DNA of 57,877 nucleotides, counting the filler, from Circinaria calcarea (Eukaryota): the NCBI GenBank assembly GCA_051942165.1. It is 2 parts of 2 records of this genome, joined end to end, with 100 filler letters (N's around TTAATTAATTAA, not from the genome) between each part and the next. Parts side by side here need not be neighbours in the genome. Positions count along the whole stretch, not along the records: positions 29,096 to 57,877 come from JAVECS010000051.1; 1 more part is not named here. One strand, given 5' to 3'. The notes beneath the pieces are model-generated. The model had not been told where the DNA came from, ran no database searches, and worked only from the letters and a program-made list of their open reading frames with translations. A program made the position numbers and the translations under genes. Shown in pieces: positions 29,096-56,981 of this stretch. Numbering within the stretch: position 1 is the first letter of the stretch; every line of letters begins with the position of its first letter.

Positions 29096-29108
29096 CTCCC
29101 TAGCTTCT

Positions 29109-29936: not shown

Positions 29937-30578
29937 CAGGGAGTTGTCGCTGACTGTTGCAGGACAGAGGGTGATTATATTTAATAAAATTATCGGTCTC
30001 CCTGAAGGGATCTAGGGGAAGGAAAATAAGGCCGAGTGTTTACAGCGAAGGCTCATAACGGTTCTGACGTGCAAATCGACCATCAAATCTGAGTATAGTG
30101 ATAAATCAATCTGAAATCTATTCAAACATAGAGTAAACAGTAACAATCTCTTCAGGCGAAAGATGGGGCCGCTCAATTCAATTTCTCTGCTGCGGTACAG
30201 GTCAATGCTATTATTTGTTTACAGACTTACGGAGTATCGAACCGACTATTGAGTAAATCGCTACTCTCCGGGGGGTTGCCCTACCCGCACTAAGCTATTC
30301 AGCCGGTAGCGCCGGGAGGGATTTGCGGGGTAATAAGACTCGACCCGGATTATCGCGTGCGGCTATCTAATTAGCCAATTCATTCCGTACGCTCAAAGTC
30401 TCGTGTTTAGCCAAAGAAGAGAATCCACTTTGGGAATACACGTGGCGCATGACTCCAACATGTTGGCCAGGGCCGCATGAAGGGGAATTCGAAAACCGCC
30501 ACCCGAGAGCAGTGCAGCATCGATCTTTCCCTCTTGGCCAGTACCAAGTTTCATACCTCCCTATAGTCTGTCGTCGGT

Positions 30579-32616: not shown

Positions 32617-33709
32617 ATTGCCTCTCGGAAGCTCCAAATCGCCTGTGCTGGCTTAGGCCGTATGGGAGCTCGACATGCCCTTCATTTCCAAAACCGGACA
32701 CCTCGAGCCCAGCTTGTTGCAGCCTTCACACTGGATGAGAATGAAATACAATGGGCAAGGCAGCATCTTGAAGGAGCGATGTTATATACAGACTACGACG
32801 AGATGTTGAAGCACCCTGGTTTACAGGCTGTGGTCATTGCTACGGTTACAACGGTACATGCCGAACAGGCCATCAAGGCAATGAAAGTCGATAAGCACGT
32901 CCTGTGCGAGAAAGCCTTTGCCTACAAGCATTGAAGTGGTATGTGGCCATTTTCACAGCACAGTGCTATACTGAAATTACCAAGTCACAATCGGTGGTCG
33001 ACGCAGCCAAGTTGCATCCTCACCTCAAAGTAATGTGCGGATTCTCTCGTCGGTTTGATAAATCCTATCGGGATGCATGGAATCGAATGGACTCGGGAGC
33101 GATTGGCCGAGCCTCGGTTTTCCAGTCCAAGACGTGTGATAAGTTGGATCCCTCGGGCTTTTTCGTTGAGTATACCAAATTGTCCGGAGGTATTTTTGGG
33201 GATTGCAACGTTCACGACATTGACCTTGCGTTGTGGTTCTTTGGTCAAGACAGTATAGTCAAAAGCGTTTCTGCTGTTGGCATAACTGCTGTCCAACCGG
33301 AGTTACGGAAATACAAGGATGTGGACAATGGCGTTGGGGTGGAAAGCTTGCATATTTTTACTGCTCCCGAATGATGGCTGCTAGTCAGCACGACATGACC
33401 GAAATAATCGGGACTGAGGGCAAACTTACTGCCAATGCAAATCCACAGAGCTCACTGGTGGATATGTATGAACCGAATGGAATCCGGAGAGAGATCCCTC
33501 AGAACTACTACGGACGGTTCGAGCAAGCTTTTGTTACGGAAGCTAACAAATTCACCGCAGCTTGCTTGGATGATACCAAGTTCCCACTCAAGCTTACGGG
33601 GGCAGTCCAGGCAGTAAAGATAGGGTGTGCCGTGCAAGAAAGTCTCAATTCGGGCTTGAAGATAAACTCTGATGAAACCGGCAGGCGCCTGGAGAAGGCG
33701 AGCTTATAG
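32617..33709 (+). pseudogene. Gfo/Idh/MocA oxidoreductase (myo-inositol dehydrogenase-like) pseudogene
   Basis: (I)ASRKLQIACAGLGRMGARHA with ATT at 32617 where ATG is expected; KHVLCEK with a frameshift at ~32910; KVMCGFSRRFD; SGGIFGDCNVHDIDL; short deletion/frameshift at ~33335 (DNGVG to GKLAYFYCSRMMA); YYGRFEQAFVTEAN. Confidence 0.85.
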
Positions 33710-37529: not shown

Positions 37530-37930
37530 CTATTTGATATAACTGCTCCATTGTGCCAACATCCAGACCAAACTCCCTATGGCCGTACATCCAGACAGCA
37601 GTAATCCCTTCCCAGCCCTCATTGTGCCAAAAATCAGCCATTCGCTGGAAAAGTGGGCGAGAGCAATGACATAAGTCCATAGCGCAAGCGTGTACCAGTC
37701 CCCGTTGTTGATCCGGTACGCCGCGTATATCCGGATAATCCCCGCTAAAAAATGTCCAGGTCCCAAAAAGCCGTGCTGCAAGAGGGGTGACTTGATTTGT
37801 GGAGGTGGCGGCAGGGCCATTGTACATCCGCTGGGTGTAGTTTGACGGGCGGAGTAACTTTGAAGGGGGAGAAGGTATATTACGCAGAATGCCCAGCTAC
37901 CAATTAAATTGCTCTGGACGATTTTCAACG
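37530..37930 (-). CDS. ERG28: Erg28 sterol C-4 demethylase complex scaffold (5' part garbled; apparent frameshift in a homopolymer)
   Basis: YTQRMYNGP...QVTPLAARLFGTWTF, then (L)AGIIRIYAAYRINNGDWYTLALWTYVIALAHFSSEWLIFGT...SLVWMLAQWSSYIK*. The ARLFGTWT, RIYAAY and HFSSEWLIFGT motifs are diagnostic. The frame switch falls in an A6 run at ~37747. Confidence 0.88.
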
Positions 37931-38119
37931 GGATTCCGTGTGTATAAAGGGATTTAGGTTACTGCGCTTATTTTCAAGCACATTCCAACAACGGGCACTT
38001 CCCATTCATTGACTTCACTCATTCCGTTATGGTAGTATTTAGAAAAAATTGTGATATATAAATGCGAAAGAATTCTAGTGTTTCGCAGCCCGAATTTTTG
38101 CACAAGCGATTATCTCGTC

Positions 38120-38412
38120 GTCATATGATCTCCCGTTTTCAACTGGAACCCTTTTTTGAATTTTTTTAAAACGTACCTTTCCCGCCCCCTGCTCCCGCGG
38201 TATACCCATATGTTCAATACGATATAACTATTGCGCATGTAAACCGATTTTTGGCAAAAAGAGTCTAATTTGTTTTTTTTATCGCTGATTTAAGCGCTTC
38301 AAACTGAGCTCTCATTTGTAAAAAAAAAAAAAAAGGCACGCAGTATTGGTGAGTGCATCCAAACTACAAGCGTAAAGAGGTTGGGGGTCCGGGTTTGAAG
38401 TTTCTCACGTGA
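38120..38412. promoter_or_regulatory. Candidate SREBP-type elements in the ERG28/ERG26 bidirectional promoter
   Basis: GTCATATGAT at 38120-38129 and the palindromic E-box TCACGTGA at 38405-38412; the region is low quality. Confidence 0.35.
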
Positions 38413-38877
38413 TCTCAGTTTTCGCTTAGGACCCTTTTTTTTGGATCTTGGCACTTATTGTTTTTTAAAAATTCTAACTTTTTACGATTTGACCCGAAAC
38501 CTTAGCGGGTATGACTAAGAAAATTTGGTAAATTTGGGTATTGCTCCAGACTTTCCGCTACTATGAGAATACCACATCGGTGATATGCTATGGGTCAAGG
38601 TTTGATTTGACGCAAAGAATTCAATTGGTGCGTGCCCTGCCACGAAGATTGCACATACTCTTCTGTTTCGCAGCCTCGTCCTTTGACCAAAATCTGGATT
38701 ACTGGCTGACTTGGTATGACTTCCCAGATATCTCCTGAAACTGCTTCCGCACGTATTCTGATAACCTAACCAAGAAGACGACCCCAAATTCCCACTCTCA
38801 ACCTAGCCGACTCTGAAACACCTCTCGCCCCAATTGTTTCGAAGGTGACCTCCATTCGGGGAACTCGAGTTGCCATC

Positions 38878-39972
38878 ATGAGTTCAGAGCTTGGCTCCGT
38901 CCTTGTTATCGGCGGTTGCGGCTTCCTGGGCCATCATATCGTCTCGCAACTTTTGGGAAACAACGCCAAGGTCTCGGTGCTCGACCTCCGGACCACCCGT
39001 AATCGCATTCCGTCGGTGTCTTACTACGATGGAGACATCACCTCTGCCGCATCGGTTCAGTCCGTCCTCGAGAACGTCAAACCTCAGGTCATTATTCATA
39101 CAGCATCTCCTGTTGGAACCTCAGGAGACGCCGCTCTCTATTATAAGGTCAACGTTGAAGGCACACGGAATCTACTGGAATGTGCTGGCAAGTTCGGGGT
39201 TGTAAAGGCATTTGTCTACACATCCAGCGCCTCTGTTGTTGATGATTCTGTTAGCGATCTCATGGATGCCGATGAACGCTTACCGATCCTAAGAAGCCCA
39301 CAGCCGACGAAAGCCTACTCACTCACCAAGGGTATCGCTGAGGAGATTGTCTTGGCCGCCAACCGCAAGTACGACAGCATGTTAACGGTCGCGATACGCC
39401 CAGCCGGCATCTTCGGAGAGGGGGATAATCAAATGTTGCCAGGAATGCTGAATGCCTATGAGACAGGCAAGACCAAGTTTCAGCTGGGAGATAACACGAA
39501 CCTTTTCGACTTCTCGTATGTGGGAAACGTGGCGCACGCGCACATACTTGCTGCAAGGGAGCTGATACGAGTCTCCACGAGATCGGCACCTCTTCCAGCT
39601 CACAAAGTTGTAGAAGGTGAAGCGTTTTTCGTTACGAATGATGAACCCTACCGCTTCTGGGACTTCACGCGTGCTGTCTGGCGCGCTGCAGGGGACAAGA
39701 CCAAGCCTGAGGCTGTATGGGTCATGCCAAAGCATTTGGGTTTAGTCCTTGCCACCATGATAGAATGGTTGTTCTGGCTGTTTACGTTTGGAAGAAAGGA
39801 GCCAAGTTTAACGAGGGAGAAGGTCAAGTTTAGCTGCATGAACAGGACCTTCCGCATTGACAAGATCAAAAGTAGGCTGGGTTATAAACCTCTCATCAAC
39901 ACGAGCGAGGCTGTCAAGAGGAGTGTGCAATGGTTTGAAATGGAGAAGTTGAAAGACAAAAAGGCGAAATGA
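38878..39972 (+). CDS. ERG26: Sterol-4-alpha-carboxylate 3-dehydrogenase (decarboxylating), Erg26/NSDHL, intronless
   Basis: MSSELGSVLVIGGCGFLGHHIV, IHTASP, VNVEGTRNLLE, FVYTSSASVV, catalytic YSLTK, IRPAGIFGEGD, FQLGDNTNLFDFSYVGNVAHAHILAA, GEAFFVTNDEP..FWDF, LGYKP. Confidence 0.95.
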   Translation: MSSELGSVLVIGGCGFLGHHIVSQLLGNNAKVSVLDLRTTRNRIPSVSYYDGDITSAASVQSVLENVKPQVIIHTASPVGTSGDAALYYKVNVEGTRNLLECAGKFGVVKAFVYTSSASVVDDSVSDLMDADERLPILRSPQPTKAYSLTKGIAEEIVLAANRKYDSMLTVAIRPAGIFGEGDNQMLPGMLNAYETGKTKFQLGDNTNLFDFSYVGNVAHAHILAARELIRVSTRSAPLPAHKVVEGEAFFVTNDEPYRFWDFTRAVWRAAGDKTKPEAVWVMPKHLGLVLATMIEWLFWLFTFGRKEPSLTREKVKFSCMNRTFRIDKIKSRLGYKPLINTSEAVKRSVQWFEMEKLKDKKAK

Positions 39973-40302
39973 AAATAATTGTCCCAAGTAGCGGACAAAA
40001 GGACCATATTTCGTAGAAAGCGTTTGTCAGTACCTGACACCCGTCAATATCAGAGTCTGCTAGCGATCATCCCCGTGGAGTTCACTCACCGGAGGGGGTG
40101 AAAAGCTCGAGGCATTCCACATACTAAGAACCTCTCGTTGAAACCTTTGGACATCCCACGGATGTTTTTATGGAGATGTGTCAATTAGACATTGAATCGC
40201 ATCGAACTATGGAGGTGATCAGGCACACAGTTTCATATCATGTATATCGATACTTCCACGTACGTTCTCAGATTCAGGCCTGGATTGAACAGTATATAGA
40301 AG

Positions 40303-40495
40303 TCCTGTCATAGAAGGCTTGCCGTGCCATTTTTCTTACTCGGCTCATTCCAAAATAACTTGCGGTGTGCGACTAACGCACCTTTTCATGGCAGAAGTGG
40401 GGTATCGGATAAATACCTACCTTTTTCCCCTTGCGCCAGTACGCCTTTGTAGATCTTATGCGAGTGCGGTGAGCTAGGCACAGCAAGGAAGAGAA
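40303..40495 (+). repeat. Non-coding module A, copy 1 (direct repeat of 45522-45719)
   Basis: Shared blocks include gtgccattttt, ttccaaaat, cgactaacgc, tttcatggcaga, gggtatcggataaatacct, ttttccccttgcgcc, atgcgagtg and ggaagagaa; roughly 75-80% identity by eye. Confidence 0.9.
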
Positions 40496-40500
40496 TCTCT

Positions 40501-40855
40501 ATTATGGTCGATCACGCCCATGGTCGATAGCGATTATTGGCCTTTGAGGTATCGAGCCTTGCCGCGTAAAGTAGCCTATGCCCGATTCTGCTTGCTCTAT
40601 TATCAAGCCTGCGTAGATTGGTAAAACGCATTAGCCAAGCCGATCTTCCACATTTAGCTTAACTACTGTCGTAAAGTCAAATGCGGATACCCTTGCCTGC
40701 ATATGTGACTTGACTACCTAGCCCCACAGTTGGGTGTCGATACCTCCGTAGCAATCGAAACAAGGAGGAGATATGGGTTCGACTCCCGTTAGCGCTACTT
40801 TACGGAGTAGGTGGTTGGTGGTTCCCCTTTTCTTGTACCGCTAGTTGCCGCTCGG
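40501..40855 (+). repeat. Non-coding module B, copy 1 (inverted repeat of 45176-45514)
   Basis: Shared with the reverse complement of 45176-45514: atggtcgat, tatcgagccttgccgc, ctctattatcaagcctgcg, agccgatcttccac, ggatacccttgcc, tgcatatgtgacttgacta, tagccccaca-ttgggtgtcgatacct, ccgctagttgccgctcgg. Confidence 0.9.
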
Positions 40856-41563
40856 CTTGTTTGGCCGGATATGTAAATGCCGGGCAACACACTGTACCCT
40901 CAGGCTTGTCACTTATCTGCCTCGAATTCCCTCGTCCATCCACGTCATCCACATCCATCTTATTGTTCCAGGCACAGTACCATGCTGTTAAGTGGCTTAG
41001 TATATTTCCCCCACTCAGAGAAGGCTACTGCGGCTTATGGGTTTTGGCGCTGCTATTCTAATCTCAATCTCAATCTGCTTGTCTTTCAACTTCTATTGGT
41101 CATGACTCCCCAACATCCTGTCATTTGATTCCCGAAACTTTGACGCACCGGCAACCACCCCAAGTGTGTGTGCACAGATAGTAGACAGAGATTCCTCGAA
41201 GAACCATTCACCCGTGTGCTTCCATCTCGAGTCTTTACCGCTTGCTCCTTGCATTTTCAGCCTTTCTACCGATCTTTGTGGATCAGTGTTCATTGATTTG
41301 CAGTGAAGCCATGGCACAGCAGCAGTATTACTCTATCCGAGCCAACACATGCGTAGCATGTATTGGCCGCCGTCAGCCGTAATAGTACAGTAGATGCCTG
41401 ATTGCCCCACCAAGTATGTCGCTTACGAAAGAAGGTGTTGGAGTTTTGAAAATACCATCTTCTCTGCTGAGACACATCCTTCGTCCTTCCTACCATTCGA
41501 TCCCTCCTGAGGTCTCTGCTAGGAATATTGAGCAGAGTATTTTTATTATTGCTTATTCAGAAG

Positions 41564-42240
41564 ATGATGACAATGATTGAAGCTATCTATATTTTCTTGG
41601 TCACTTATAATTACATCGTACTTGCTGCTATCGGCATCATATTCACTCTCCTTATGATTTGGTTTGATAGACGAGTTGGAGCTCTTCCAGTACCTCCGGT
41701 TTGTAAATCTCACCTGGGCCCACATCAAGTTATTTATTCTAACATTATTAAATCAGACTAATGCTATGATACCGAGTCTCTCTGCTTCACGTCCAGGTCG
41801 ATGGATAGAAAACATTAAATACCTTTTCGAGGGCACCGAGAAGATACTCTAGAGTTACGTGAGTTCCTGGTGAAGGAGCAATTGAATCGCATCAAGACTC
41901 ATCCATCCTTTGCAGAGACCTGGAGAGCCTTATGTCGTTGCAACCCCAGAGAATTATTGCATCCTTGTCTCATCCAAGAAACATATGGTACAGCTTGGTA
42001 AAACGCCCGAGCTATCGCAGCGCGCAGCTTATGTTGATGTTAGTCCGAGAAAGAAGCCTACACATCGCCGTTCCCTGCTAATGACGGATTAACAGGTTCT
42101 CGGTTGGAGTAAACAGTTATTCAACTTGAGAATCCTAGGATAGAAGAGCAAACTACAGCAACCCGTGGGCTTCAAGCTCTAGTTCCCCAAATGAGGAGGT
42201 ATTATGCTTCATATATTATGAAATTGTTGGAAGGCATAGG
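41564..42240 (+). pseudogene. Truncated cytochrome P450 (N-terminal remnant, same broad class as the P450 at 46049-48258)
   Basis: N-terminal anchor MMTMIEAIYIFLV...IGIIFTLLMIWFDRR; RWIENIKYLFEGTEKIL*SY (in-frame TAG); RPGEPYVVATPENYCILVSSKKHMVQL...LSQRAAYVD. No K-helix or heme motif follows before the MFS gene. Confidence 0.7.
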
Positions 42241-42849
42241 GCTTACAGAGTCATGTGTTATCTACGGGTAATACACGGTCCATGCTCAAAACTCTCTACA
42301 CACTTCATGAAAGCGTTTTCTTCGTAGCATAGTTAGTTTAGTTATATACACACTCGGGTAGCAATACATGCAACTATACATGCTGCTGCCCATCAGAAAT
42401 TCTGGTGTATCTTCTAATAAACTACGACTTTAAACTTGCAGACGAAAATGCCTCCCTGAGATACAAATGGCGTTATTTCGGCTCCCGCGAGAGGGAATTC
42501 ATTTTCTTTTCCGCAAAAAGGTTCAGAAGGCTTAGAAGCAGTGAGGAGTAATTCGCTGTTATAGCGGTTTCACTTTAGATAATCGTATTCATTACCGCCT
42601 AATTCCATAGTGTTTATGGGTAATGTATAACCCAATGCGTTTATAAATAAATTTACGGTTCGGGTTGAATATTCAGGCACGATATGTGTAACGCCTGGTA
42701 GGGTGGCTGAGAATCTAGCACTGTCCAGAAGTATAAGCTACAGGGCACAGCCAAGGCTTCCCGGACCCCAACTTGCCGCCCATATGCTCTAGCATACCTC
42801 CCTTGCAACCTTTGCTTTTTCCTGCCCCGGCCACTTTGGGTTGCAACGG

Positions 42850-44562
42850 CTAGTCTATGCGGAAGCGCTTATGCTTTCGAATACGCTCTCCATATCGGAC
42901 TAGCAGAAAGGGGACCGGAATGAGAGCTACGGCAATGAAGCCAAGCAAAGAATTTCCCCAGCCAAGGCCCAACTTGTCATACATGGGAAGGCCAGCGAGT
43001 GGAATTAGAGCACCGACAATTGCTCGCCAGATAGCATTTGCCGCAAGTGCTGATGCAGCATGCTGAGTGAAAGCATCGACTAAATAGGCTTGTATGGCTG
43101 CCTATGACAGATATAACCAGTTAGCCGACCCTTTCCACGCTGATAAGTTAAAAAGGTCAATAATCAACGAGCAATATCAAACTAGCCACGGAAATTCCGC
43201 AAATGCTTACAAAAAACGTCATGATGCCCACCCCTACAAAGGAGGTACCTAAAATAGGCACGAGCCAGAAGACATGCTTCTCAGCTGTCCAGCCGTAAAT
43301 GAAAAGACCGACGGGGATGCAGAATCCGCCAGGTATCATAATCGTCAAACGGTATTCAGGCTTCATTTCCTCTTGATTGGCCTTGGCCCTTTTCAGCCGA
43401 CGGTCGGAAATGAGGCCGAACGCGGTCACACCAATGATCATTCCTATCCCTACACCCAAAAAGGTCAAGCCCACAAGGCTCGGTGAAAAGCCATAACCGA
43501 CCTCGAAAACGGTGGTAAGTGTTGTGAAAAGGAGGTATAAGTAGCCGTAGACGATTGCTGATAAAGTTGCGAGGAGAGATATAATGGGGGAAAACAAGAG
43601 CATTTTAAAAGGACGAATAATGGCATGCTGCAGGGCGTTGCGCCACGAGAGGTTCGAAGCAAGCTTGGAGCGGAGGCTCGGCTTGTTCAGCTGCTTACGT
43701 AGGCGGGCAGTTTTATGCTCCAAGAGCGCGACGGAGTAGGTTTCACGTACAGTGAAAGGATAGATTACCGTGATTGTGCTGGACTTGTACGGTTAGTCTG
43801 TGCACATAACGAATAGGAGGACTGGACTTTACCGCCATAGCGAGCACCCAAAAGACCCATCGCCACCCCTCGGCCGCTGACAGGAATCCGCCCATCACTG
43901 GTCCAATGATAGGGCCCAGTAGCGGACAAATGGACCATATTGCGATGGCTTTGCCGCGTTCTTCCTGCACGAAAAGATCACTGATTGTACCTCCGCCTAA
44001 GGCAATTACGGCTGACCCTGCAATGCCCTGAAGCAGCCGGAAGCCGATCAACATATCAAGGCTAGAGCTAACAGCGCAAGCCACTGTGAAAACAACGAAA
44101 AGGGCATTAGTACTATTGTACAAGGGCGAACGGCCATAGAGCTCTGTAAAGTCAGTATTAGCGATAGTTATCGCCCGGCCGGACAGGCGTACCTGAAAGC
44201 GGTGCAATAACCATAGGGCCGGCAGCGTTTCCAAGAACGTATACAGATACTACAAATGAGGCGAGCGCTGGGCTGGTGGATCCGAACTCGGTCATGAGCC
44301 GGGGCACGCCGGGAGCGAACATTGAGGAGGCAAGTGATCTATCATTTTTATCAATATATCGACAGTGAGTATGTGATGTTGAGTCCTATACATACGTGAT
44401 TAATGTCATGGCTGCAAGGCTCGCGATCAGGAGCCATTTTTTCCTCGGCTTCCAGTTGAGCGCTATCTCTGGGTCTAAAGGGCCGTTGAAATCCACAATA
44501 TCGAGATCGGGAACCTCCAATGCGTTTAGACAAGCAAGCGCAGCCTTTCTATCACACCGCAT
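42850..44562 (-). CDS. MFS drug:H+ antiporter (DHA1 family), multi-exon; start uncertain
   Basis: DIVDFNGPLDPEIALNWKPRKKW, SLASSMFAPGVP, ELYGRSPLY, FRLLQGIAGS, GGGTISDLFVQEERGKA, GPIIGPVMGGFL..GWRWVFW, RETY, RPFKMLLFSPI, KPEYRL, YLVDAFTQHAASALAAN, LGLGWGNSLLGF. Confidence 0.9.
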
Positions 44563-45175
44563 GATGTTTCTGTACTGTATCTATGTCGGAGACTGTGTTA
44601 TAAGATTATTGAAGGAAATAGTCTTCTTGACATCAATTTATGAGTCTGGTAGAGAATTTTTCCTACTTTCCCAGATCATCTGGGCCTTCGAACGGTTGCA
44701 ATAGTGCCTTGATTGCTAAGATAAGCGTAATTATTAATAACGCAAGCCCTCACACAGCTTGATCGAAATATTCTAGAAGAGAAGGTAGCGAGCTGTCGAG
44801 TCAGAGGAGCAAGAGTATCCAAAGGCATATGCCGGGAGCAGCGATGAGGGCCAAAAAACTGGTGAGCGGGCTGAGGGCTTCCCAGAGCTTCGGAGCAGAC
44901 ATCACGCCTCCGATCGAGACCCTCGTGGACACAGAAGCGAGAAGTACAGAGTAAGACAAACCTTATCAGCGTAAGGAATAGCGGCAGAGGGACGAACCGT
45001 CTCCGCGCTGGTTTACCACTTGCACAGCGCCGATTTGAATCCTCTCTTGATGACATTGGGCGCTTTCCAGTTATTTGAGACTCAGCCGCAGCGGAAACCT
45101 CCGTGTTAATGGAAGATATCCCTGTGGGAGGAAGTGGGGCTAATAACGCAATGCCATGGGAGATCGGGGAAAGAT

Positions 45176-45514
45176 CCGAGCGGCAACTAGCGGCAGCTAC
45201 GGAGTTAATAATCAAGGTATCGACACCCAATTGTGGGGCTAGTCAAGTCACATATGCAGCTACTGGCAAGGGTATCCACTTTTGAACTTTACTACGCGGT
45301 GTGGTAGTAAAGCTCAACGTGGAAGATCGGCTGGGCTAATGCTTTTTATTAATCTATCTATCATGACCCCCACTCAACCTAGCCAAGGCTAATATTGTCC
45401 CTCAGCCGCAGGCTTGATAATAGAGTAAATAGAGCGGGCATTACATCATGCGGCAAGGCTCGATATTCGAAAGGGCCGGTACCGCTATCGGTCATACGCG
45501 TCATCGACCATGAT
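45176..45514 (-). repeat. Non-coding module B, copy 2 (inverted relative to 40501-40855)
   Basis: The reverse complement aligns block by block to 40501-40855, with indels. Confidence 0.9.
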
Positions 45515-45521
45515 GGACAAC

Positions 45522-45719
45522 TCCTGTGATAGGAGGTTGCTGTGCCATTTTTCCTACTTAGCTTATTCCAAAATGGCTTGTGGCGTACGACTAACGCTCC
45601 TTTCATGGCAGAGGTAGGGTATCGGATAAATACCTCACACCCTTTTCCCCTTGCGCCCCTAGATAGTGCTCCTTTGGATCTCATGCGAGTGTGGTGAGCA
45701 AGCACAGCAGGGAAGAGAA
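45522..45719 (+). repeat. Non-coding module A, copy 2 (same orientation as 40303-40495)
   Basis: tcctgtgataggaggttgctgtgccattttt...gggtatcggataaatacct...gcacagcagggaagagaa. Confidence 0.9.
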
Positions 45720-46048
45720 AGTTCGGAGTAGAGGCTAGACCGTGAGTATGCAAAACCCTACACGCATAGCATCACCTGCAGGCACTCCAGGCGGCCAGGT
45801 CATGGGATCATGGGATTACTAAATTACTGTGTGCATGGCGCGACTTCGATCAGGTGGAAGGCCATTTGAGTATGGATCGACTTGTATCCTCCCTAAACGG
45901 GATAATTTGAAAAGAATTACAAGTGCTACGCAATTTTCATTTGGGAAACATAGTCTTATCAAAATTCTACTATGCTAGATCGAATGACAACTTGCTGACT
46001 GCTGTTTCAGCTCTAACAGGGATAAGCTAAAGCAAAGAGTGTTGAGTT

Positions 46049-48258
46049 TTACGATGAAGGATTTCGTTCACGGACAAGAATTGCCAGCCGAGGATGCGGG
46101 ACGCATGCAATTCCCCAGTTGAGAGTTGACGGCGCTTTTGAGTGGGCAATTTTGAAATCGTAATGAGTAACAAAGTGCGCAACAACCATTTTAGCCACCA
46201 TCGACACGTAGAATCTGGCTGGACTATGTAAAAAAGTAAGCTGAAGTAACAGCCAACGGCATATGAATGTTCCATAACACTCAGTAATATGGCGATTTTA
46301 GCTCGAGGACTTACCAAGCTTGCTTTACTATCCCCCAATAGGGAAACGTCCAGCTAGGATGTGAAAGTCTGCATGTAGAAGCTGGCGTGGCACCGTTCCT
46401 TTGGTCCACAAACCGAAAGCCCTGAAAGCTGAGCGGATCCGCATAGTATGCTGGATCTTGCATGATATCTTTTTGAGGAATGCAAATCCAGTTTCCAGAT
46501 GGAACATATGCGCCGTCGGAGAAATTAAATGACGATACAACTTTATGAGGCATGCTCACTATGCGCAGGTTAAATAGTGCTGCAATCCCGGAAGGTAACC
46601 AGGGCTAGAGAAGTCTTACCGATAGTAATAGGGTGAAGACGAGCGACCTCCTTCAAAAAACTATCAAGATACGGCATATCTTCGTTGTTGATATCGTGGT
46701 TATTCTCTGAGGAACGCTCTACCTCTTGGCGTAAAGGTTCAACATATTCAGGATGCATACAAAGTCGATAGAGGGCGAATGTGAGCAACTGCGAGTTTAT
46801 CAATGCATAGACAGCATAGACGATTAGAGAATAGCTAACATACAACTGGCAACTGATGGGTGGAAGCAAATAGGATAGCAAGAACATGTCGACTTAAAGC
46901 AGGCACTGTTGCCTTTCTTGAACGATCGATAGACCATTGGACGCAATTGATCTGAGCATATATAAGCACATCCTTATAGCAACCAAAAACAAGACTAACT
47001 GGCTTATTTGCAGCTGACCTCGGATTTTGGATCAAGTATTCGATTTCTTTAGTAATAAGGCCAGATAAGTTATTCATACAACCACCTGACTGCATAATAG
47101 CCATGCCAATCAACCTAAACCTGACTGTGAGCGTCTAAGTAGAATGGTAATCCATACCGGCCTTACGGTTTAAAAGCACTTAGAACGCCGGGGACAAATC
47201 GAAGGATTTCTTCTGCAATAGTGGCGTTGCGTAGATAGTGCATCAGTGAATCGATGAATTTCGGATCACCAGCTAGAAAGAGTCAGACTCGGAATTCCCA
47301 GTGATAATCGCAAAACGTACACAAGTCTGCTCCCACAATGACAAGACTATTGAGTCTCGCAGATAGTTTATACATCGCATAGTACGCAGAAATTTTGGTC
47401 CAACCTAATCTATAAGTTAAAGCAAGTCCTGCTCAAGTATAGGTCGAATCGAGAATAGTTCACATACCATTGACTACTTTCTTGCCCTGCATCTCGGTGA
47501 GAAATGCTTCTTCCATTCTTGTTCGTAATAAGGGTTGAAGTATAGGAAGATGAGATCTTAGATTAGATTTGAAAATGACCTGAGATAAATTTAAATTGCC
47601 CTGGATATCACCAGCGGGCATCCCGCCATAAAGCTCATTCGGCGGGAATAACTAGAAACAAATAAATGTAAGAAGCTTGAAAAGAAATCGGCGGTTTGAT
47701 AGCACCAACCTCGTGAACTGCACCTTGGAGAGACACATCATAGATGGAAGCATGATTGAATTCTTCGATGTGTTTGCTAGATGAGACGCACACGTGGAAC
47801 TTGTCTCTTGTCGGAATCGCCCATAGGTTTCCCTTAGCCTAGACCATAAGCTTTTTGTTTGTAACCTTCTACTTCGGCTATCTGGACATACTCTTGTATA
47901 AGCACTAGATACCAGCCTTTCGGCAAAGAACAAATGCAGAAAGCCAGTACACCATCGCCCAAGAATGGTAGACATCCCAATAATCTGGATATTTTGCTAT
48001 AGGTGATGCAGTCAGGATCCTGGCTCCCAGAACTTGGGCTGGGTTTCTTACCGGGGAAAGGAGCACCATCCTGTAAGCCGTCTTCACCTCCCATGCTATA
48101 AACGGTATGAGAAGCCAATACCAATGCCACCATTGCAGTAGTAATAAAACAAAACTCAGTGCTTGGGTGTCCTTCGGCTTGTAGCCATGGTCTGGGTGGC
48201 GATACTGTTTCCCAACAGAGAGAGAACTACAGTTTGAGAAAGGCGGAGACTCAAACAT
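46049..48258 (-). CDS. Cytochrome P450 of the intron-rich secondary-metabolism class (ent-kaurene-oxidase/terpenoid-oxidase-like); alternative ATG at 48288
   Basis: TM anchor LSFVLLLLQWWHWYWLLIPF; WAIPTRDKFHVCVSS; LRSHLPILQP; I-helix LAILFASTHQLP; LYRLCMHPEYVEPLRQE; K-helix LDSFLKEVARLHP; DPLSFQGFRF; heme loop WGIVKQACPARFYV across an intron. About nine GT-AG introns; the exons checked have consistent phases. Confidence 0.88.
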
Positions 48259-49701
48259 AATGCAATAACAATACACAGAGAACTTCATACGGAAAAGTGG
48301 GAGAGTAAGACACAAGCCCAAAACAAGTATCTTCCCCAGAAGATATTGAAAAGAGTCAGAATGATTTCATAGGCTGAAAGTCAATAGCCTTAACGTAGCC
48401 GAATCGAGATTAATTCCGCGAAGCACAGCCCGAGATGGACCCCCAACTCACAATTCTCCAGGTTTAGAAACGAGTTAGCTTTTGCAATAGATAAGCGTTA
48501 CTTGGGTTTTGCGGCGCTCACGGCCTATCAGCAATTATTTGCCATTCGTCGTGCGGCTGAGGTGTACTGCGGTAACTAATATGCTGATCTCCTTATGCGC
48601 TGATATGCTGGACGAATAAAACGCCATACATCACAGCTACGTTGGGGGCCTAATGGTGCCCACCTTAGCAGCATCACCACCACCATTAAGTCCTGAACTG
48701 GAGGCGCCTAGCGGCAGGAAAGACCCACTCATAGTGGTCGGAGACTGCTACATTATCTCACATATGCTGGTCACCCTTCTCAGGAGGGAATCGGTGAACA
48801 GAGCTTGCAGGGCCTCTAAGATGGAGCTATTATCATGCGGTTGATTGGCATAATATGGTACACCTATCAGAGTAAGTCTCAGCTACGCTTTTAGTGGTGG
48901 AGTCATTCCGCACCTCCATAACTTCGTCAGGTTGCCGTTATGTCTATCCGGTTGCCTCTTTCATGCCTTCCTCATTGAGTTGTGAGGTTTAATACCACTG
49001 CTCATACCTTTCCGACACCTACCTGTAGTGTGATGGCCTACAAGGCCACCCCTACTCCGTAGTGCAGCCAATACCGTGTGCACTAACAGTTCCCAGTGTA
49101 GTGCGCTGCCAAGCCCAGTTCTCGGTGCAGTGCGGAGGGCACTGCACTGCACTGCCAGTCCAGTTTAGAGGGTGTCGTACGGCCACGAGCCATTTGCCCG
49201 CCCCCACTGTAACCCCGGAGCCGTAATCGAGGCAATATACCCCTGTTTAGCGAGATTGCAATGCAGTTCGGGAACCATAACACTGTCAGGATATGCCCCG
49301 CAGACCATTGCCATATAACCTGCTATAGTAAGTGATCGTGCATGCGTGTACACCATTTTGGCGTAGCCGTAGTAGCTTCACCCACTATTACTAAGCTATG
49401 ACAAACACGGTACCAATAATAATGCGGAGGGCCACTGTCAAGCTAGTGCAGCTTCGAGGCCCATGCGAAAGGGCGCGATTTTAGTTTCCGGACACAAGCT
49501 TCTCGCTAAGCGCTTCCTGTGTCCGGAGACTTCAGACGCATTCTTTGTACTCCGTACTGCAGCGCACTAAACCGCTGCGAGCACAGTAGGCGCTAGTACT
49601 ATTAGCGCCTGTTGAAGATGATATTCGCAATAAACATTAAGCATTTACTCAAGTTTGATTTTTCTTATTGAAAAACTGATAGAGCAAGGAGTTATTTCGC
49701 T

Positions 49702-51401
49702 ATGGAGAAAAGCATAATAAACACGGTGGTTGTTACGCTCGTGGCAGTAATAGGTGCCACGACCTTATTCCTGGTGAGGCGTCTTCGAGTTCCTCGATTT
49801 CCAAATGAGCCGCCTTATATTTCTTCGATGGTCCCATACATTGGGCATGCTCTCGGACTATTTCGACACAAAATGTCATACTATAGTAAAATCAAGTATG
49901 TACATATCTTCCTTGCTTCGATAGGTTACAAAAAGGGTTACAGCTCGAGGATTGCCGTTTATTTATTAAGACCGAGACTATGTGTGTATCTTGCCGCTAA
50001 TCTAGAAGTGCCGTCTCAGTGTACACCGATTGCCAATCTACACCCTCACCATGCCGGGTGGTAAGATATACGTTGTGAACTCGCCCGACCTGGCGGTAGC
50101 GGTGCAGCGCCATCCGAAAACCCTTTCTTTCTGGTACCTAGAGGCACTGTTTGGGCAGCGTCTAGCTGCACTAAGCAAAGAAGCCGGCACCAAGCTTATG
50201 ACAAATGTGCAAGGCGAAGAAGGCGAGATCAGTCTCTTCCTGGACGGGATCAAGTTCTTGGCAAAGATCCTGAAACCAGGTGAGGGCCTCGATCACATGA
50301 ACCGCGTCGCACTTCAGAGTATCGCTGCATCGCTGGCCAAGTTCGAAGGCGATGGAAGCAGCAGAGTGGACTTGTGGGAGTGGATCCGCCACGAAGTTAC
50401 CATGGCGACGACGGAGAGTACGTATGGCAGAATGAACCCCTACAGGCAGGAAGAGGTGGAGACAGCATTCTGGCAGGTCGTGGAAATCCTATATCCTAGT
50501 ATTGTGTGCTAACAATGCTAGGCAACTCTCCGAGTATGCGTCTTTACTCCTTCTCGGAGCTATGCCAAGTATCTTTGCTAGAAAAGGTTACCTAGGTCGC
50601 GATAAGGTCACTGCTGCATTTGAGAGATACTTCGAGCTTCAAGGCTATGAGAATGCTTCTCCAATGACAAAGGGCCGTCATGAGATTATGCGAAAGCACG
50701 GTATCTCTGTTAAGGATATGGCGCGCTTCGAAGGTGTACAGGGAGTCACGATACTTTCCAATACTGTACCCTCCGCATTCTGGACGTTGTATCACGTTTT
50801 TTCAAGACCGTCGGTGCTCCAAAGCGTTCGAGAGGAAGCCTATACAATGCTAAGTGTCAGAGAAGAACAAGGTATAACAATACGGACACTCAACATCGAC
50901 AACATCAGGGAAATCCCCGTGTTTGCCTCGCTCATACAAGAAGCGCTTCGTCACCAAGCCCTGGGTGCGGGCACTCGGATGGTGATGGAGGATGTTCTGC
51001 TAGACAGCCACTACCTACTAAAGAAAGGCTCTTTTCTAATGATGCCCAATGCAATATTCCATTTTGATGAATCTACGTGGGGTCCGACTGTGGAACAGTT
51101 TGACGCTAAACGATTCATCAAATCCAAGTCAAGCGGGAAAGTTCATTCTGGCGCATTCCGGGCCTTTGGAGGTGGCGCTAACCTTTGCCCTGGGAGGTTC
51201 TTTGCCGTGACAGAAATCTTATCAATGGTCGCAATGTTCGCATTGAGATATGACCTCACTCCTGCCTCTGGCGAGTGGGTTGCTCCTAGACCAGATCTAG
51301 CAAATATGTCCTTTATAGTCAACCCTCCAAAAGACAAGATAGCTGTCACCGTAAACCCTAGGAAGGGATGGGAGCATGGTCTGTGGGCATTTGAACTTTG
51401 A
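49702..51401 (+). CDS. Cytochrome P450, CYP7/CYP8-like (sterol 7-alpha-hydroxylase-like) fungal clade; 2 introns
   Basis: TM anchor, EPPYISSMVPYIGHALGL, LPIYTLTMPGGKIYVVNSP, YGRMNPY, I-helix ILSNTVPSAFW (Asn-Thr as in CYP7/8), EALR, FDAKRF, heme FGGGANLCPGRFFA. Confidence 0.92.
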
Positions 51402-51609
51402 AAAGGGAATACAGAGTAAGAGGAGCCAGTGATTGGCTTAACAATGTCCACTAAATATGGAATAAGGATCAGTTTAGAACATTTCGCGTCTATTTTTGAT
51501 AATGCTTCTTTTTCGTCTCTCGTATTGTAAATTGGCTATACCATATTCAAATAAAATCCAAATTCAGTCCCGAGCCCAGATCAGCATGCGTCGTCTACAC
51601 GCAATTTAA

Positions 51610-53156
51610 TCAACTTTGCCATATTCTATGTGTCAGATGGATTTGATCGTCCTTCACCGGCTCTGCCTTTCCCCTCTCTATATAAGTTTTCACGGTGTGT
51701 GTTTGGCCCAAATTATGCTGTGATTGCATTGATGCAAAGTCGGCATTAATACGGTATACTTGGGACGGCTCGATGCTATGCATATTAACCTCGGAGCCGA
51801 CTTTCCCAAGTTCGACGTCTGACTGAAAGCGGCTGAAGGACTTGTTGTTCCGAGTCATTATGCTGCGCAAATCGCTCCATCGCGAATAGAGTTTGGATTT
51901 CAGCGTCTGGTAGATCGGAAGATGATGTTGGACCACCTTCGAGAAAGAGGGTATGCATGACACGATTACTCCGACGTACATTTCCACGAGTCTACAACCT
52001 TGTTAGCGGACTGAATGGCTATAGAAACATTGTGAGATACCTACGCTAAAAGTATAACGTTAAGACTGGCCCATGTTGTATCATCGGTCGAATTATCGAC
52101 GACTCGGTAATAAATACTGAGGAGGGAGGCAACGCAGGCGCTATGTGACCGTCTTTAGTAGTAGTTAGAAGGAAGGAGGGCTTACTATCATACAGTAAAC
52201 CGGTCAAAAAGATCAATATGATCCCGATCTTACGTCGCTTCGGCATCTGCAGTTGCCAAATAGCCCTAATGGGCAAAATTAAAAGATAGATGTCGGTGAC
52301 AAACCCCACGGAAGCTATAGGAATTGAGAGCCCATATTGTGCATTATGTTCCTGCACACTGAAAAGGTGCTCTAGCCATGTTTCCCCGGATCTGGGGGTT
52401 GTAAGTATGAACATGGCAATGCTGGCGGCAACGTAAAATGCACTCGTGAACGTGCCGCCAATATAAATACAGATTCTCATCCATCTCAGTGGGCGAAACA
52501 GTTGAAAGTACATAATGTAGAAAGTGAGCTTGGCGGCAAGAAGAGTTGGCCCGGGCAGCGCAGAACTCAGGAAAGCTTGTGACTGTACTAAAGTTAGTTA
52601 TGCTTCCATTGCAGCAAGCGTGTGAACCCACAATTATGAAGCCTTTACCCAATATAGTAGCAAGTGTTACGTCCCATTGGTGCTTTCCCAACCCATTTTT
52701 TACTCCTATTGCAGGATTTAGCAGGCGCTCACAAGTTAAGATTTGAAAGGAGCCAGATGACTCACCCCATATCTCGACCCCCAAATATGCCGTAGCACCC
52801 ATCTATTAAAGGCTCTATCAAAAAGGGTTCCGGTGGCATCTATTAGGAGGAGGTCTGGTGATGAACTCACAACTGCAAGGGAGCAAGTCACTGTTACTGC
52901 CTTTAGCGTGATAATACCATCCGAGGAGAAGTCAAATTAACTTACGATCATCCCAAGCCAGTTTTCGAATGATGAAAAGCCTAGAATACATTCTGACTGA
53001 ATAGAAGAGTAACATGAGGCCCCATAAGATGGAGCCCACAATGTGTATGAGATACCCTCGGTCTTCTGGATTGGTGAAATTGGAGACTACTCCTGGCGGT
53101 GGCTTCAAGGCAGGAATCATGCCCCATAGTGCTGGCGGAGGAAGTGACGTTGACAT
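51610..53156 (-). CDS. PTH11-like fungal rhodopsin-domain integral membrane protein (no CFEM), multi-exon
   Basis: PALKPPPGVVSNFTNPE, VRMYSRLFIIRKLAWDD, GLGKHQWDV, AKLTFYIMYFQLFRP, VTDIYLLILPIRAIWQLQMPKRRKIGIILIFLTG, VEMYVGVIVSCIPSF. Confidence 0.9.
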
Positions 53157-54165
53157 GATGGAAGATGTTCAGATCTTAAAGGCCAAGTGGTCAGGATGTG
53201 ATGAAAGCAACAGGGGGGAAATGAGAAAGACGTGAGTAGGCCACTGCGTGAGCAAGTGATCAGGTCACCCGGGAGAAACACCGAGGACTTCGGGCGAGTG
53301 TAACGCAAAGAACAGCCGGAAAACATTCATGAGAGATATAGAAGCCAAGAAGGCGGAGCCCCCTTCGTCGTACAACAATGGAGGCTGAGGTTAAAGGCTT
53401 GTGCCAGTGTTTCGGCTTGAGCGGACAGGATCTGCTGAGAGGAGCAGCTGTGAAAGGGGACGCGGAATCCGCAGTTGACAGTGCGCCATGCATGCAAGCT
53501 TTCTGTGCGAGAATGGCGTGGCAGAAGGATGCTTAGTACCAAAGCCCACTCGATATCGGGGAATAACATCTCCAAGAGGGGTTGCGCCATTTACCCAGGA
53601 GCTGGGGTCCTCAATCCTCACGTACATGCCAGTTGCAGCAGCCGATCCGAGTCAGGCATCGAATAGTTCTAGTTCTACAGAGTATGCGGGAGCCGAAACA
53701 GAAGAGGCACGGTCACTGCTGCATGACTATTTCACCCACAGCCAAAGAACTAGTCCCGCCTTAGTGCTTACTTACAAGTCGGTAGAATTCACTTTCAAGG
53801 TACCTCAGCTGTGCCCGACAGGCCCCCACCCAGTCTACCATACGGAGTGTTGTAGCCTGACTAACGCAATTCAGTTAGAATATTTGAGCCAAATGGTAGC
53901 TCTTGCCGCCAAGTCGAATTTACTACCACTTTGTAGTATCTGACGTTGTACAAGTACTGCTTCTTCAGCTGCCGAAGAGATGCCTTTTCGCCTTTTTAGC
54001 CCCTTGTGCTTGTTACTAGCTGGCTGGGCTCGGCCTTTTACCTCCCCGTCTTGTGCTCCCAGCTCAGCCTTTTCAAATTGTCAGATTCTTCTTTGGATTA
54101 CCATTGACCTCCTTCTGATACCCGTGGCCTGATTGTCTATCTCCACGCAAAGAAACGATCATGAA

Positions 54166-55251
54166 ATGGAAGACCACCTCGGCATTGTCCTGGTGATTGG
54201 TGGGTGCGGCTGTGTCGGCTTTCACGTCGTCAAAGCATTGCTCGAAGAACCATCTTGCTCCTCTATCCATGTCTTCTCTCGCAACCCATATCATAATCGT
54301 CTCCCAGGCGTACAGTATCACGCCGGGAGCCTTACTTCCTTCGAAGACATACGCTCCCTCTTCGAAACCATTCACCCGACCGTCGTTTTCCATGTCGCCT
54401 CTCCACTCTCGTCCGGTAACGATGCCAATAACAAACTCTTCTATGATACGAACGTGCAAGGCACCAAGTACCTACTGGATCGGGCCGGCAATACTCCAAG
54501 CGTCAAGGCCTTTGTTTACACATCCTCCTCAAGTGTCGCTCAGGAGCCTTACAACTTCATCACAGAGGCCACCCCACTAATTTCATGCAAATCTGGCTTC
54601 AATTACTACTCGGCAACTAAAGCGTTGGCTGACGAGTGCGTCCTGAAAGCTAACAATCCAGCGGGTGGCTTCCGCACTGCCTGTCTTCGCATCTGCACCG
54701 TCTACGGCGAGCGGGACAATCAACTGATTCCGGGTACACTCAAGGCGCTCCGAGACGGGCGGCAACATAACCAGATCGGAAGCAACACTCATCTGTTTGA
54801 TTTCGTCTCTGCTACCAATGCCGCAACAGCCCATGTACTAGCCGCCAAGGCCATACTACGAGGCTTCCACGACCCCCAATCACCAAAGGTCGATGGCGAG
54901 GCTTTCTTCATTACCGACGGTAAGCCCGTCTTCTTCTGGGACTTCTCCCGCAAGGTTTGGAGCGCAGCAGGAGACCGAACACCCGCAAAGGCAGTCAAGA
55001 TAATTCCTGCCTGGTTTGTACTCGGTCTTGCGATCACGGTGGAGTGGATTTATTGGGTATTTACCTTTGGGCAAAGGACGCCGAAATTTCTGCGTAGCCA
55101 CACGATCCGATGGGTGACATCACAGCGCACATTTTCGATAGAGAAGGCGAAGCAACGGTTGGATTATAGGCCTGTTGACGACATGGATGAGAGTATCATC
55201 AAAGGTGTTGAATGGTGCTTAAAAGAAACACAAACGTCGAAAAAGTACTAG
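54166..55251 (+). CDS. Second Erg26-like 3-beta-hydroxysteroid dehydrogenase/decarboxylase paralog, intronless
   Basis: MEDHLGIVLVIGGCGCVGFHVV, FHVASP, TNVQGTKYLLD, KAFVYTSSSSV, catalytic YSATK, VYGERDNQLIPG, QIGSNTHLFDFVSATNAATAHVLAA, KVDGEAFFITDGKPVFFWDF, WIYWVFTFG. Collinear with 38878-39972 but clearly diverged. Confidence 0.92.
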   Translation: MEDHLGIVLVIGGCGCVGFHVVKALLEEPSCSSIHVFSRNPYHNRLPGVQYHAGSLTSFEDIRSLFETIHPTVVFHVASPLSSGNDANNKLFYDTNVQGTKYLLDRAGNTPSVKAFVYTSSSSVAQEPYNFITEATPLISCKSGFNYYSATKALADECVLKANNPAGGFRTACLRICTVYGERDNQLIPGTLKALRDGRQHNQIGSNTHLFDFVSATNAATAHVLAAKAILRGFHDPQSPKVDGEAFFITDGKPVFFWDFSRKVWSAAGDRTPAKAVKIIPAWFVLGLAITVEWIYWVFTFGQRTPKFLRSHTIRWVTSQRTFSIEKAKQRLDYRPVDDMDESIIKGVEWCLKETQTSKKY

Positions 55252-55466
55252 AATTATAGTAAAGACCTGCATTACTTTAGAGAAATATATCAAAATTGAA
55301 AATAATAATTACATATAAATACTTTTGAAAAAACGAGGGAAACTAGATTTAACCCCTTATATGCAGTGGTTTTCCAAGAATATTGTGGGTAAAACAATTT
55401 GTGACATAATTTATTCCGCGTAATTTTCTGGTCTCAATAGAGAATACTAATTCCTCAGTTATTGAC

Positions 55467-56981
55467 ATGTCGTTATTTAGCATCTGCATCATTGTGCCCA
55501 AACCTTCAGTGAATTCGGTGAAGAAAGCCCTAGAGGCGCAAAGGAAGTTAGACAAAGCGCGAAAGATTGAAAGTATCAGCAACGCAGAGTGTTTACTTGA
55601 ATATGTCACCGAAACTGGTTACCGGTACGATGGCAGAGGGTTCCTTGTGCGCACAACGGAGACCGTCAAAGTTACAGATGAGAGTACTGCCCAAGCGATG
55701 CTTGACTCCGAGAGAGACTCCCTAGCAAGAAAGCTAGGGATTGAGCTGTATGCTCCAATGGTCAGCTTCGCCGTCTACCCCTGGGAATTGGATTCGACAC
55801 TATCTGCACTACCAGGGTGGGATACGCCCGCAAAAGGCCGCTTGGCTCAGTTAATCACCCACTGGCTCCTCGATCTCCCATCCGAACTCCGTTCCTCCCT
55901 TCCAACTCCCGTCACCCAGCTTGTCTCCATATTGCCAGCCTCTTATACCATCTACCCGCCGCTTCTCCTCCTTCCCCCACCCGCCTTCACCCGTCCGCCC
56001 TGGCCCAAGCTGCTAGACACGATTCTGAAGCCCTACCTCCTAGCTCTCTACCTCCTCCTCTGCCAAACCCTCCACGTCACGCACATCGCCCGCAACGCAC
56101 CCATCCCCCTCCTCTCCACATCCACCGAAGCAAACCCTTCCCCCAACATCCTCCGTGCGCCAATTGCTCTCACCCGTCTCCACGGCGACTTCGGACCCCC
56201 AGGTCTTCTACCCTCCCCGTCCGCCTTCACAGCCGCCTTCTGGGTCTCCACACGCCAGCACTCCATCTACCAGACCTGGGCCCCCCTCTACACCATGTTT
56301 TCGCGCGGCAACATCTCCGAGAAGGCGCGGATCTTAGCCATGCCGGAGCTCAGTACCGAGAGGCTAGGCTATGAGCCCGCCGAAAGCAGTGCCGTGGATC
56401 TGTATGCCGGAATCGGTTATTTTGCGTTTTGCTATGCGAAAAGGGGGGTGGGAAGGGTGTTCTGCTGGGAGATTAGCGGGTGGAGTGTTGAGGGGTTGAG
56501 GCGGGGAGCGGAGGGGAATGGGTGGAGAATAAGGATGGTTGAAGGGGAAGAGAGATGCGAGGGCAGCCGGGAGAAGTTGGTAGTGTTTGCGGAGGATAAT
56601 CGGAGGGCAGGTGAGAGGATGAGGAGCATGAGAGGGAGGATCCCGCCCGTCCGACATGTGAACTGCGGGTTCCTGCCGAGTTCGGAGGGGAGCTGGGAGA
56701 CGGCGGTTGATGTTTTAGATCCAGTGGAGGGAGGATGGGTTCATGCACATGAGAATATTGCGATTGAGGATATTGAAGCAAGACGGGACCAAATCGTGAA
56801 GCTTTTTGAAAGATTATTGATAGAGCACGGGGCCAAGCCACACCGAACGGTGGAATGCCAGCATCTGGAGAAGGTCAAATCATACGCGCCAGGCGTCATG
56901 CACTGTGTGTTGGATATCTATATCGGGCCCGCCCTCCAGTCCACCAGGTCTACTGTAACCACGCCCAAACCAGGAAGCTGA
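55467..56981 (+). CDS. TYW2: tRNA wybutosine-synthesizing protein 2 (Trm12/Tyw2 aminocarboxypropyl transferase)
   Basis: YTIYPPLLLLP, VTHIARNAPI, NILRAP, FWVSTRQHSIYQTWAPLYTMFSRGNISEKARIL, AVDLYAGIGYFAFCY, CWEISGWSVEGLRRGA, RHVNCGFLPSS, HAHEN, VKSYAPGVMHCVLDI. Confidence 0.93.
   Translation: MSLFSICIIVPKPSVNSVKKALEAQRKLDKARKIESISNAECLLEYVTETGYRYDGRGFLVRTTETVKVTDESTAQAMLDSERDSLARKLGIELYAPMVSFAVYPWELDSTLSALPGWDTPAKGRLAQLITHWLLDLPSELRSSLPTPVTQLVSILPASYTIYPPLLLLPPPAFTRPPWPKLLDTILKPYLLALYLLLCQTLHVTHIARNAPIPLLSTSTEANPSPNILRAPIALTRLHGDFGPPGLLPSPSAFTAAFWVSTRQHSIYQTWAPLYTMFSRGNISEKARILAMPELSTERLGYEPAESSAVDLYAGIGYFAFCYAKRGVGRVFCWEISGWSVEGLRRGAEGNGWRIRMVEGEERCEGSREKLVVFAEDNRRAGERMRSMRGRIPPVRHVNCGFLPSSEGSWETAVDVLDPVEGGWVHAHENIAIEDIEARRDQIVKLFERLLIEHGAKPHRTVECQHLEKVKSYAPGVMHCVLDIYIGPALQSTRSTVTTPKPGS

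Follow-up and report, generated by a model that had tools for sequence, protein, structure and literature searches.

The ERG26-like gene at positions 54166..55251 (+ strand) of the window, referred to here as copy 2, is the last gene of a conserved four-gene cassette and encodes a paralog of Erg26 in which a Ser-Arg pair replaces the Asp residue that selects NAD. In ascomycetes, lichen fungi among them, copy 2 travels with two P450 genes and a gene for a receptor-like membrane protein. Judged from its sequence and by analogy with VidM of the demethoxyviridin (vid) cluster, copy 2 would be an NADP(H)-dependent steroid 3-oxidoreductase that works like VidM and tailors a sterol from the cell's own pathway within this cassette, a reading to which we assign a probability of about 50%. 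The window, by which is meant the whole stretch of 57,877 nucleotides analysed, is made up of two contigs, at 1-28995 and 29096-57877, with N between them, and both of its ERG26-type genes lie on the second of these, C51. Proteins identical to genes of this assembly (P0083 and P0241) bear the NCBI label Circinaria calcarea, which is a lichen fungus, and are marked there as metagenome-assembled.

An old paralog of housekeeping ERG26

Housekeeping ERG26 (copy 1) occupies 38878..39972 (+) as a single open frame of 364 amino acids, and copy 2, located 14 kb downstream of it, is a single intronless frame of 361 amino acids. An earlier sequence-only reading had described both genes as intronless, about 360 amino acids long, in the same orientation and in possession of the GxxGxxG motif, the TSS serine and YxxxK, all of which is borne out by the translations. 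Both proteins match the Pfam 3Beta_HSD family (219 bits for copy 1 and 151 bits for copy 2), and they are 40% identical to each other across 367 columns. The predicted model of copy 2 (pLDDT 91.5) matches extended short-chain dehydrogenases/reductases (SDRs) in a fold search, generic ones only, while NSDHL alone among solved structures matches copy 2 at E <= 1e-15. The assembly holds 11 matches to the ERG26 family, 7 of them near full length, so the description of copy 2 as a second copy was right about the existence of an extra homolog but understated the number. Four of the assembly's paralogs are of the Ser-Arg type (copy 2 and genes on contigs C411, C1477 and C4933), and one, on C670, is of the Asp type. 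The C670 paralog shows 30 departures at columns conserved in canonical Erg26, and its long branch lies close to the canonical clade.

The best relatives of copy 1 are named erg26 proteins. Those of copy 2 are 72-73% identical to it and come from Xylographa and other sources, followed at 54-64% by proteins from Hymenoscyphus, Botrytis and Cladonia; relatives at 60-74% occur in Lecanoromycetes and Leotiomycetes. In a tree of 244 sequences under a midpoint root, copy 1 groups with the named erg26 proteins and copy 2 falls on the opposite side with a support of 1.0, though the sampling (the top matches of both searches of at least 300 amino acids plus five assembly sequences) favours such a split. 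The canonical clade still holds together in a wider tree of 182 sequences, assembled from a thinned version of the old set and the 120 of 145 new representatives that passed a length criterion, and then put through a coverage filter. Outside the canonical clade the Ser-Arg and Asp states are mixed, which indicates a labile cofactor switch and a root that is not fixed; rooting on two distant Ser-Arg sequences places the canonical clade within the paralogs. By its sequence, copy 2 is an old Erg26 paralog that lies outside the housekeeping Erg26 clade. A recent tandem duplication of copy 1 is ruled out by the 40% identity, the absence of a nucleotide self-match and the separate branch.

The three segments that the earlier reading singled out as differing between the copies (GGCGCVG versus GGCGFLG, a second segment, and LRICTVYGE versus IRPAGIFGE) read as it stated. 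These differences are traits of the subclade, however, and not private to copy 2, since GGCGCVG recurs in close relatives.

Cofactor site and conserved residues

The key change had gone unremarked in the sequence-only reading. At the end of strand 2, Asp is present in all 122 canonical sequences, and human NSDHL likewise has Asp in this column. On the paralog side the column holds Ser in 121 of 122 sequences and the adjacent position holds Arg in all 122, the pair being Ser38-Arg39 in copy 2. The corresponding residue in yeast, Asp37, is reported to set the specificity for NAD+ versus NADP+ (PMC4633953), and an Asp-to-Ser change paired with Arg switched preference from NAD to NADP in two engineered dehydrogenases (bioRxiv 10.1101/2021.05.05.440912). 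Given this substitution, copy 2 probably uses NADP(H), and use of NADP(H) would in turn suggest that it acts as a reductase.

Of the 125 columns that canonical Erg26 conserves, 36 are changed in copy 2, more than in any of 118 canonical sequences, and several of these changes adjoin the catalytic serine. Copy 1 departs at 4 of the same columns, which is ordinary in that 51 of the 118 canonical sequences have as many; there is accordingly no sign of resistance having arisen in copy 1. Arg321 of copy 2 aligns with an Arg found in 120 of 122 canonical sequences, its probable equivalence to yeast Arg315, the residue that binds the 4-alpha-carboxylate, being judged from spacing, and this C-terminal Arg is kept in 17 of the 21 members of the copy 2 subclade. 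Retention of this candidate carboxylate-binding residue means that a 4-carboxy substrate, and with it NADP+-driven C4 decarboxylation, is conceivable for copy 2.

These residues bear on two other accounts of copy 2. In one, copy 2 is a tailoring reductase which acts on a non-steroid, either another terpenoid or a polyketide made elsewhere. The 36 altered positions, several of them by the catalytic serine, are compatible with such a change of substrate, and one Atlas cluster among the top matches bears the name 'ketoreductase' only. We consider a non-steroid substrate quite unlikely nonetheless, as NSDHL is the only solved relative at the threshold given above, the C-terminal Arg persists in most of the subclade, and the family of the neighbouring P450b is closest to sterol P450s.

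In the other account, raised by the sequence-only reading, the cassette product is an inhibitor of Erg26 and copy 2 is an insensitive stand-in. An extra homolog of an essential gene does lie inside a cluster with the housekeeping copy retained, the catalytic residues and the candidate carboxylate-binding Arg are kept, and an inhibitor derived from a sterol would need no backbone gene. A natural inhibitor of Erg26, FR171456, is a 4-carboxy steroid mimic to which single changes confer resistance (PMC4633953). The loss of the NAD-selecting Asp, the low identity to copy 1 and a number of departures that exceeds that of every canonical sequence fit a changed reaction better. In addition, four Ser-Arg paralogs occur in the one assembly, an ERG26-like gene is missing from most sister cassettes (see below), and no backbone gene was seen in the pieces scanned. 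A resistant stand-in should keep the housekeeping reaction and hence the conserved cofactor and substrate residues. Since copy 2 has apparently changed its cofactor, we regard self-resistance as very unlikely.

Synonymous sites are saturated between copy 2 and its relative at metagenomic locus L018 (dN 0.19), and for that reason no dN/dS value is given for copy 2 itself; omega between the relatives at loci L024 and L027 is 0.16-0.22. Copy 1 has peculiarities of its own. Residue 122 is Asp in copy 1 and in its twin on C411, whereas His occupies this position in 115 of 122 canonical sequences, and omega between copy 1 and this twin is 0.39-0.50, which is high for an essential gene.

Organization of the cassette and its surroundings

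The cassette consists of two head-to-head gene pairs, P450a(-) with P450b(+) and a PTH11-like gene(-) with copy 2(+). The order on C51 is ERG28(-), ERG26 copy 1(+), a P450 remnant, a P450 pseudogene, a gene for a transporter of the MFS type(-), P450a, P450b, the PTH11-like gene, copy 2 and a TRM12-like gene. The sequence-only reading had placed an extra Erg26 inside a cluster, which is correct for copy 2; copy 1 lies outside the cassette, next to its divergent partner ERG28 at the left edge.

P450a (46049..48288, - strand) matches the Pfam P450 family on two exons, is conserved at loci L018 and L024, and has an uncertain start codon. Ten GT-AG introns with matching phases were read by eye, the last of which splits the codon of the heme cysteine, and the gene appears intact. 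P450b (49702..51401, + strand) has three exons and spans the full length of a 509-amino-acid relative. The donor of P450b intron 2 (50474-50522) is GC, whereas that of L018, L022 and L024 is GT, and this may be either a rare intron or damage. A database protein, P0241, is spliced differently at this intron and lacks the first exon. Human CYP7A1 and CYP8B1 are the only solved structures that match the P450b relative P0274 at E <= 1e-12, and the match to CYP7A1 is distant (E 1e-17). P450s of the CYP7A1 type accept other substrates too. The third gene (51610..53156, - strand) encodes a PTH11-like membrane protein with a fungal rhodopsin domain (PF20684); it is a multi-exon gene read by eye, and it is 55-62% identical to the genes at the same place in L018, L022, L024, L027 and L028. 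For P450a and the PTH11-like gene, intactness was judged from the by-eye reading together with homology.

Among the flanking genes, the partial ERG28 gene lies at 37530..37958 (-; PF03694). The right flank gene at 55467..56981 (+) has no Pfam match and is probably TRM12/TYW2-like. The MFS transporter gene (42850..44563, - strand, identified by Pfam, ends approximate) is outside the conserved four-gene core and has no ortholog beside relatives of the cassette. Between ERG28 and ERG26, at 38120-38570, lies a dispersed element with at least a dozen copies in the assembly at 66-89% identity. Farther to the left, at 29044-33709, genes of the short-chain dehydrogenase, sorbitol-dehydrogenase-like and Gfo/Idh/MocA types stand in a row, the first two with apparent frame breaks, and they are possibly a decaying group for sugar or polyol catabolism.

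No polyketide synthase (PKS), NRPS or cyclase was seen in the ORF lists, in 27 chosen pieces of the window searched with Pfam, or among the long ORFs of L018 and L024. Likewise, no Baeyer-Villiger monooxygenase, esterase, glyoxalase or Bet v1 gene was found between ERG26 and the right flank or in L018 and L024. Shared promoter words were not clearly above shuffles in the two spacers: one spacer gave 10 seven-letter words (shuffle maximum 9) and one eight-letter word (shuffle maximum 1), and the other gave nothing.

Conservation of the cassette in other genomes

A metagenome scan yielded 24 loci, of which 10 have a gene 54-74% identical to copy 2; two of these (L023 and L025) have too little upstream DNA to be informative, and the other eight represent four distinct sequence types. 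Seven of the 8 loci with at least 1.1 kb upstream have a PTH11-like gene head to head, and 3 of the 4 that reach 4.8 kb or more have P450b. The complete set of four genes, in the order and orientation of the window, occurs in 2 of the 3 loci with 10 kb, namely L018, where the copy 2 relative is 74% identical, and L024, where it is 60% identical; the flanks of both are unrelated to those of the window. The miss at every step is L019, where the ERG26-like gene of L018 recurs at 99% identity within DNA that has a GC content of about 23-31% and lacks long ORFs. There the ERG26-like gene stands alone (L019:9536-11621), either as a stranded copy of 2.1 kb or after loss of the cassette. At L024 a gene of the dihydroxy-acid dehydratase family (15562-17564) lies 4.5 kb downstream of the cassette, past an MFS gene.

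As judged from locus tags only, relatives of P450b and copy 2 are next to each other in Hymenoscyphus albidus and H. fraxineus, while Xylographa vitiligo has them three tags apart. Among the 14 more distant loci none has a PTH11-like match; both P450 types occur at L038, in a different order, a weak P450 match at L033, and an unrelated P450 7 kb off at L037. The sequence-only reading had considered that copy 2 might belong to an ancient, widespread clade unlinked to these P450s elsewhere. The clade is indeed ancient and widespread, but elsewhere it is linked to these P450s. Neither ERG28 nor a TRM12-like gene accompanies the relatives of copy 2 at any of the 24 loci, which indicates that the closeness of copy 2 to housekeeping ERG26 is local to the lineage of the window.

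This synteny largely refutes the view that copy 2 is a backup Erg26 isoenzyme with incidental neighbours. Rhodopsin-domain and P450 genes are common in the assembly (165 PF20684 matches and 101 P450 matches), Aspergillus oryzae is reported to have both Erg26A and Erg26B (PMC12016551), and L019 shows that the gene can occur without the cassette. Incidental neighbours are nevertheless scarcely tenable when the same four genes recur, at 60% and 74% identity, in one order and orientation between unrelated flanks, and when the neighbouring genes are nearest relatives instead of random members of their families.

Related cassettes within the assembly

The exon of the cassette PTH11-like gene has 60 matches in the assembly, and the first and third non-self matches adjoin the ERG26-like paralogs of C411 and C1477. 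In a rhodopsin-domain family with 165 matches in the assembly, mere adjacency means little, and it is the match of nearest relatives that counts. A P450 lies within 5 kb of 7 of the 10 best PTH11-like paralogs versus 3 of 20 other rhodopsin-domain genes (Fisher p = 0.005), a comparison in which the paralogs are not independent, the controls were hand-picked from long contigs, the distances were worked by hand, and 3 of 20 is a lower bound because 92 of 273 candidates were scored. The ten paralogs are the 12 best non-self matches minus two on short contigs, C4456 (1.6 kb) and C4391; C977, which was picked for its P450, is uncounted. The nearest paralogs on C21, C240, C276, C255, C146 and C971 (L051-L059) adjoin P450s of the same two types. 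Additional genes beside PTH11-like paralogs are a sulfotransferase on C21, an FAD oxidase on C971, and MFS transporters on C146 and C977. These sister cassettes are mostly without an ERG26-like gene. On C1477 (L013) a third Ser-Arg ERG26-like gene adjoins two tandem rhodopsin-domain genes, and no P450 was found on this 6.8 kb contig.

The accessory genes recall phases I, II and III of detoxification. It is possible, though improbable, that the PTH11-like protein detects a steroid or terpenoid from outside the cell, which the P450s and copy 2 then modify and the transporter exports; the absence of a backbone gene from the pieces scanned would fit this arrangement as well. The MFS gene of the window, however, is not conserved alongside the cassette, and the demethoxyviridin cluster illustrates that steroid biosynthesis without a clustered cyclase is normal (PMC5943271).

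A second version of the locus

The locus from ERG26 to the TRM12-like gene exists in another version on contig C411 (L011, L012). Compared with window positions 37854-56051, C411 shares ERG26 at 86% DNA identity and the TRM12-like gene at 88%. Between these flanks C411 has a P450d(+), a different ERG26-like gene(-) about 50% identical to copy 2, a P450c(+) and another PTH11-like gene, 46% identical. The cassette of the window is entirely missing from C411, and of the MFS gene only the 5' end survives. In the window, the alternative cassette is reduced to wreckage, comprising an inverted 290-base P450d remnant (40005..40294, - strand; 89% identical to C411:5099-5388, within the P450d gene) and a P450c pseudogene (41557..42551, + strand) from which about 1.35 kb, including the heme-ligand region, is deleted at 42194/42195. 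The two versions thus show reciprocal losses. Parts of a segment of 400-500 bases occur twice in the window, at 40300-40745 and 45215-45719, about 80% alike and partly direct, partly inverted; this repeat may be a trace of the rearrangement by which the alternative cassette was broken.

The start of C411 overlaps C2181 by 131 identical bases, and C2181 carries a 94% identical twin of the side with ERG28. The match is continued by C2270, and C5100 provides 750 bases of a third version. Three other stretches, a small sample, have no twin elsewhere in the assembly, which disfavours a genome-wide duplication or a second whole genome. C51 and C411 are either diverged haplotypes of two genotypes that have lost opposite cassettes or the products of a segmental duplication.

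A more speculative scheme, which we consider a long shot, would join these observations into a unit that both makes and senses a steroid signal. The P450s and the NADP(H)-dependent Erg26 paralog would make an oxidised sterol for which the PTH11-like protein is the receptor, and two non-orthologous versions would alternate at ERG28-ERG26 in the manner of idiomorphs, giving genotypes with different signals.

Proposed function of the cassette

In the VidM-like reading that we prefer, the two P450s would act as oxidases on a sterol or triterpenoid that the ergosterol pathway of the cell itself supplies. Copy 2 would then set the oxidation state at C3 with NADP(H), most likely by reducing a 3-ketone as VidM does; alternatively, it could carry out the NADP+-driven decarboxylation at C4 after oxidation by the P450s. 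The PTH11-like protein may sense or regulate the product. The assignment to steroids draws on family membership and the distant match to CYP7A1. Of the two roles offered by the sequence-only reading, that of a recruited tailoring enzyme gains support from the switch at the cofactor site and from the conserved linkage to the same two P450s.

Recruited Erg26-like enzymes such as VidM, extra Erg26 genes and PTH11-like genes in clusters are already known. A description of the four-gene cassette was not found in the open-access literature searched. The cassette is defined here as a small conserved unit, and its four genes are few enough for joint expression. The PTH11-like proteins form a very large family with few known ligands, and since a putative receptor is encoded head to head with its modifying enzymes in two fungal classes, the cassette opens a direct route for seeking a ligand. 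For genome mining, a clustered ERG26-like gene with a Ser-Arg cofactor site should be read as a tailoring enzyme before it is taken as a resistance marker.

Comparison with known systems

Copy 2 resembles canonical Erg26 in its fold, the GxxGxxG, TSS and YxxxK motifs, the C-terminal Arg, its length and 89 of 124 conserved columns. It differs in having Ser-Arg for Asp, in lying on a separate branch, in the occurrence of several paralogs per genome and in the linkage to P450 and PTH11-like genes. Removal of a C4 methyl by a P450 and an SDR, HelB1 and HelC, in helvolic acid biosynthesis is a possible model for the chemistry of the P450s and copy 2, but the helvolic acid cluster has its own oxidosqualene cyclase and HelC was assayed with NAD+ (PMC5696383). 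With regard to the receptor-like gene, 4.2% of PTH11-like genes are reported to lie in predicted clusters, whose products have been suggested as ligands (PMC12842992). Those clustered receptors are mostly near PKS or NRPS-like genes (PMC12842992), whereas neither was seen among the pieces scanned around the cassette, which would probably escape cluster prediction that relies on backbone genes.

The closest parallel is the demethoxyviridin cluster, which was found by its P450s and whose 19 tabulated genes include no cyclase (PMC5943271). As in the cassette, which combines several P450s and redox enzymes without a backbone synthase among the pieces scanned, an Erg26-type gene has been recruited among P450s (PMC5943271). 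VidM is annotated as a C-3 sterol dehydrogenase/C-4 decarboxylase and favours the 3-OH form, its loss leaving the 3-keto form, and one of the vid P450s is annotated as a sterol 7-alpha-hydroxylase (PMC5943271), which may be compared with the match of the P450b relative to CYP7A1. The cassette has 4 genes versus 19, the furanosteroid genes of vid were not seen in it, and its PTH11-like gene is absent from the vid table (PMC5943271). In Hymenoscyphus the locus tags of the viridiol cluster differ by thousands from those of the cassette, which is a different cluster (PMC8254937). The cassette would work like a tailoring module of the vid type and is not a member of the vid family.
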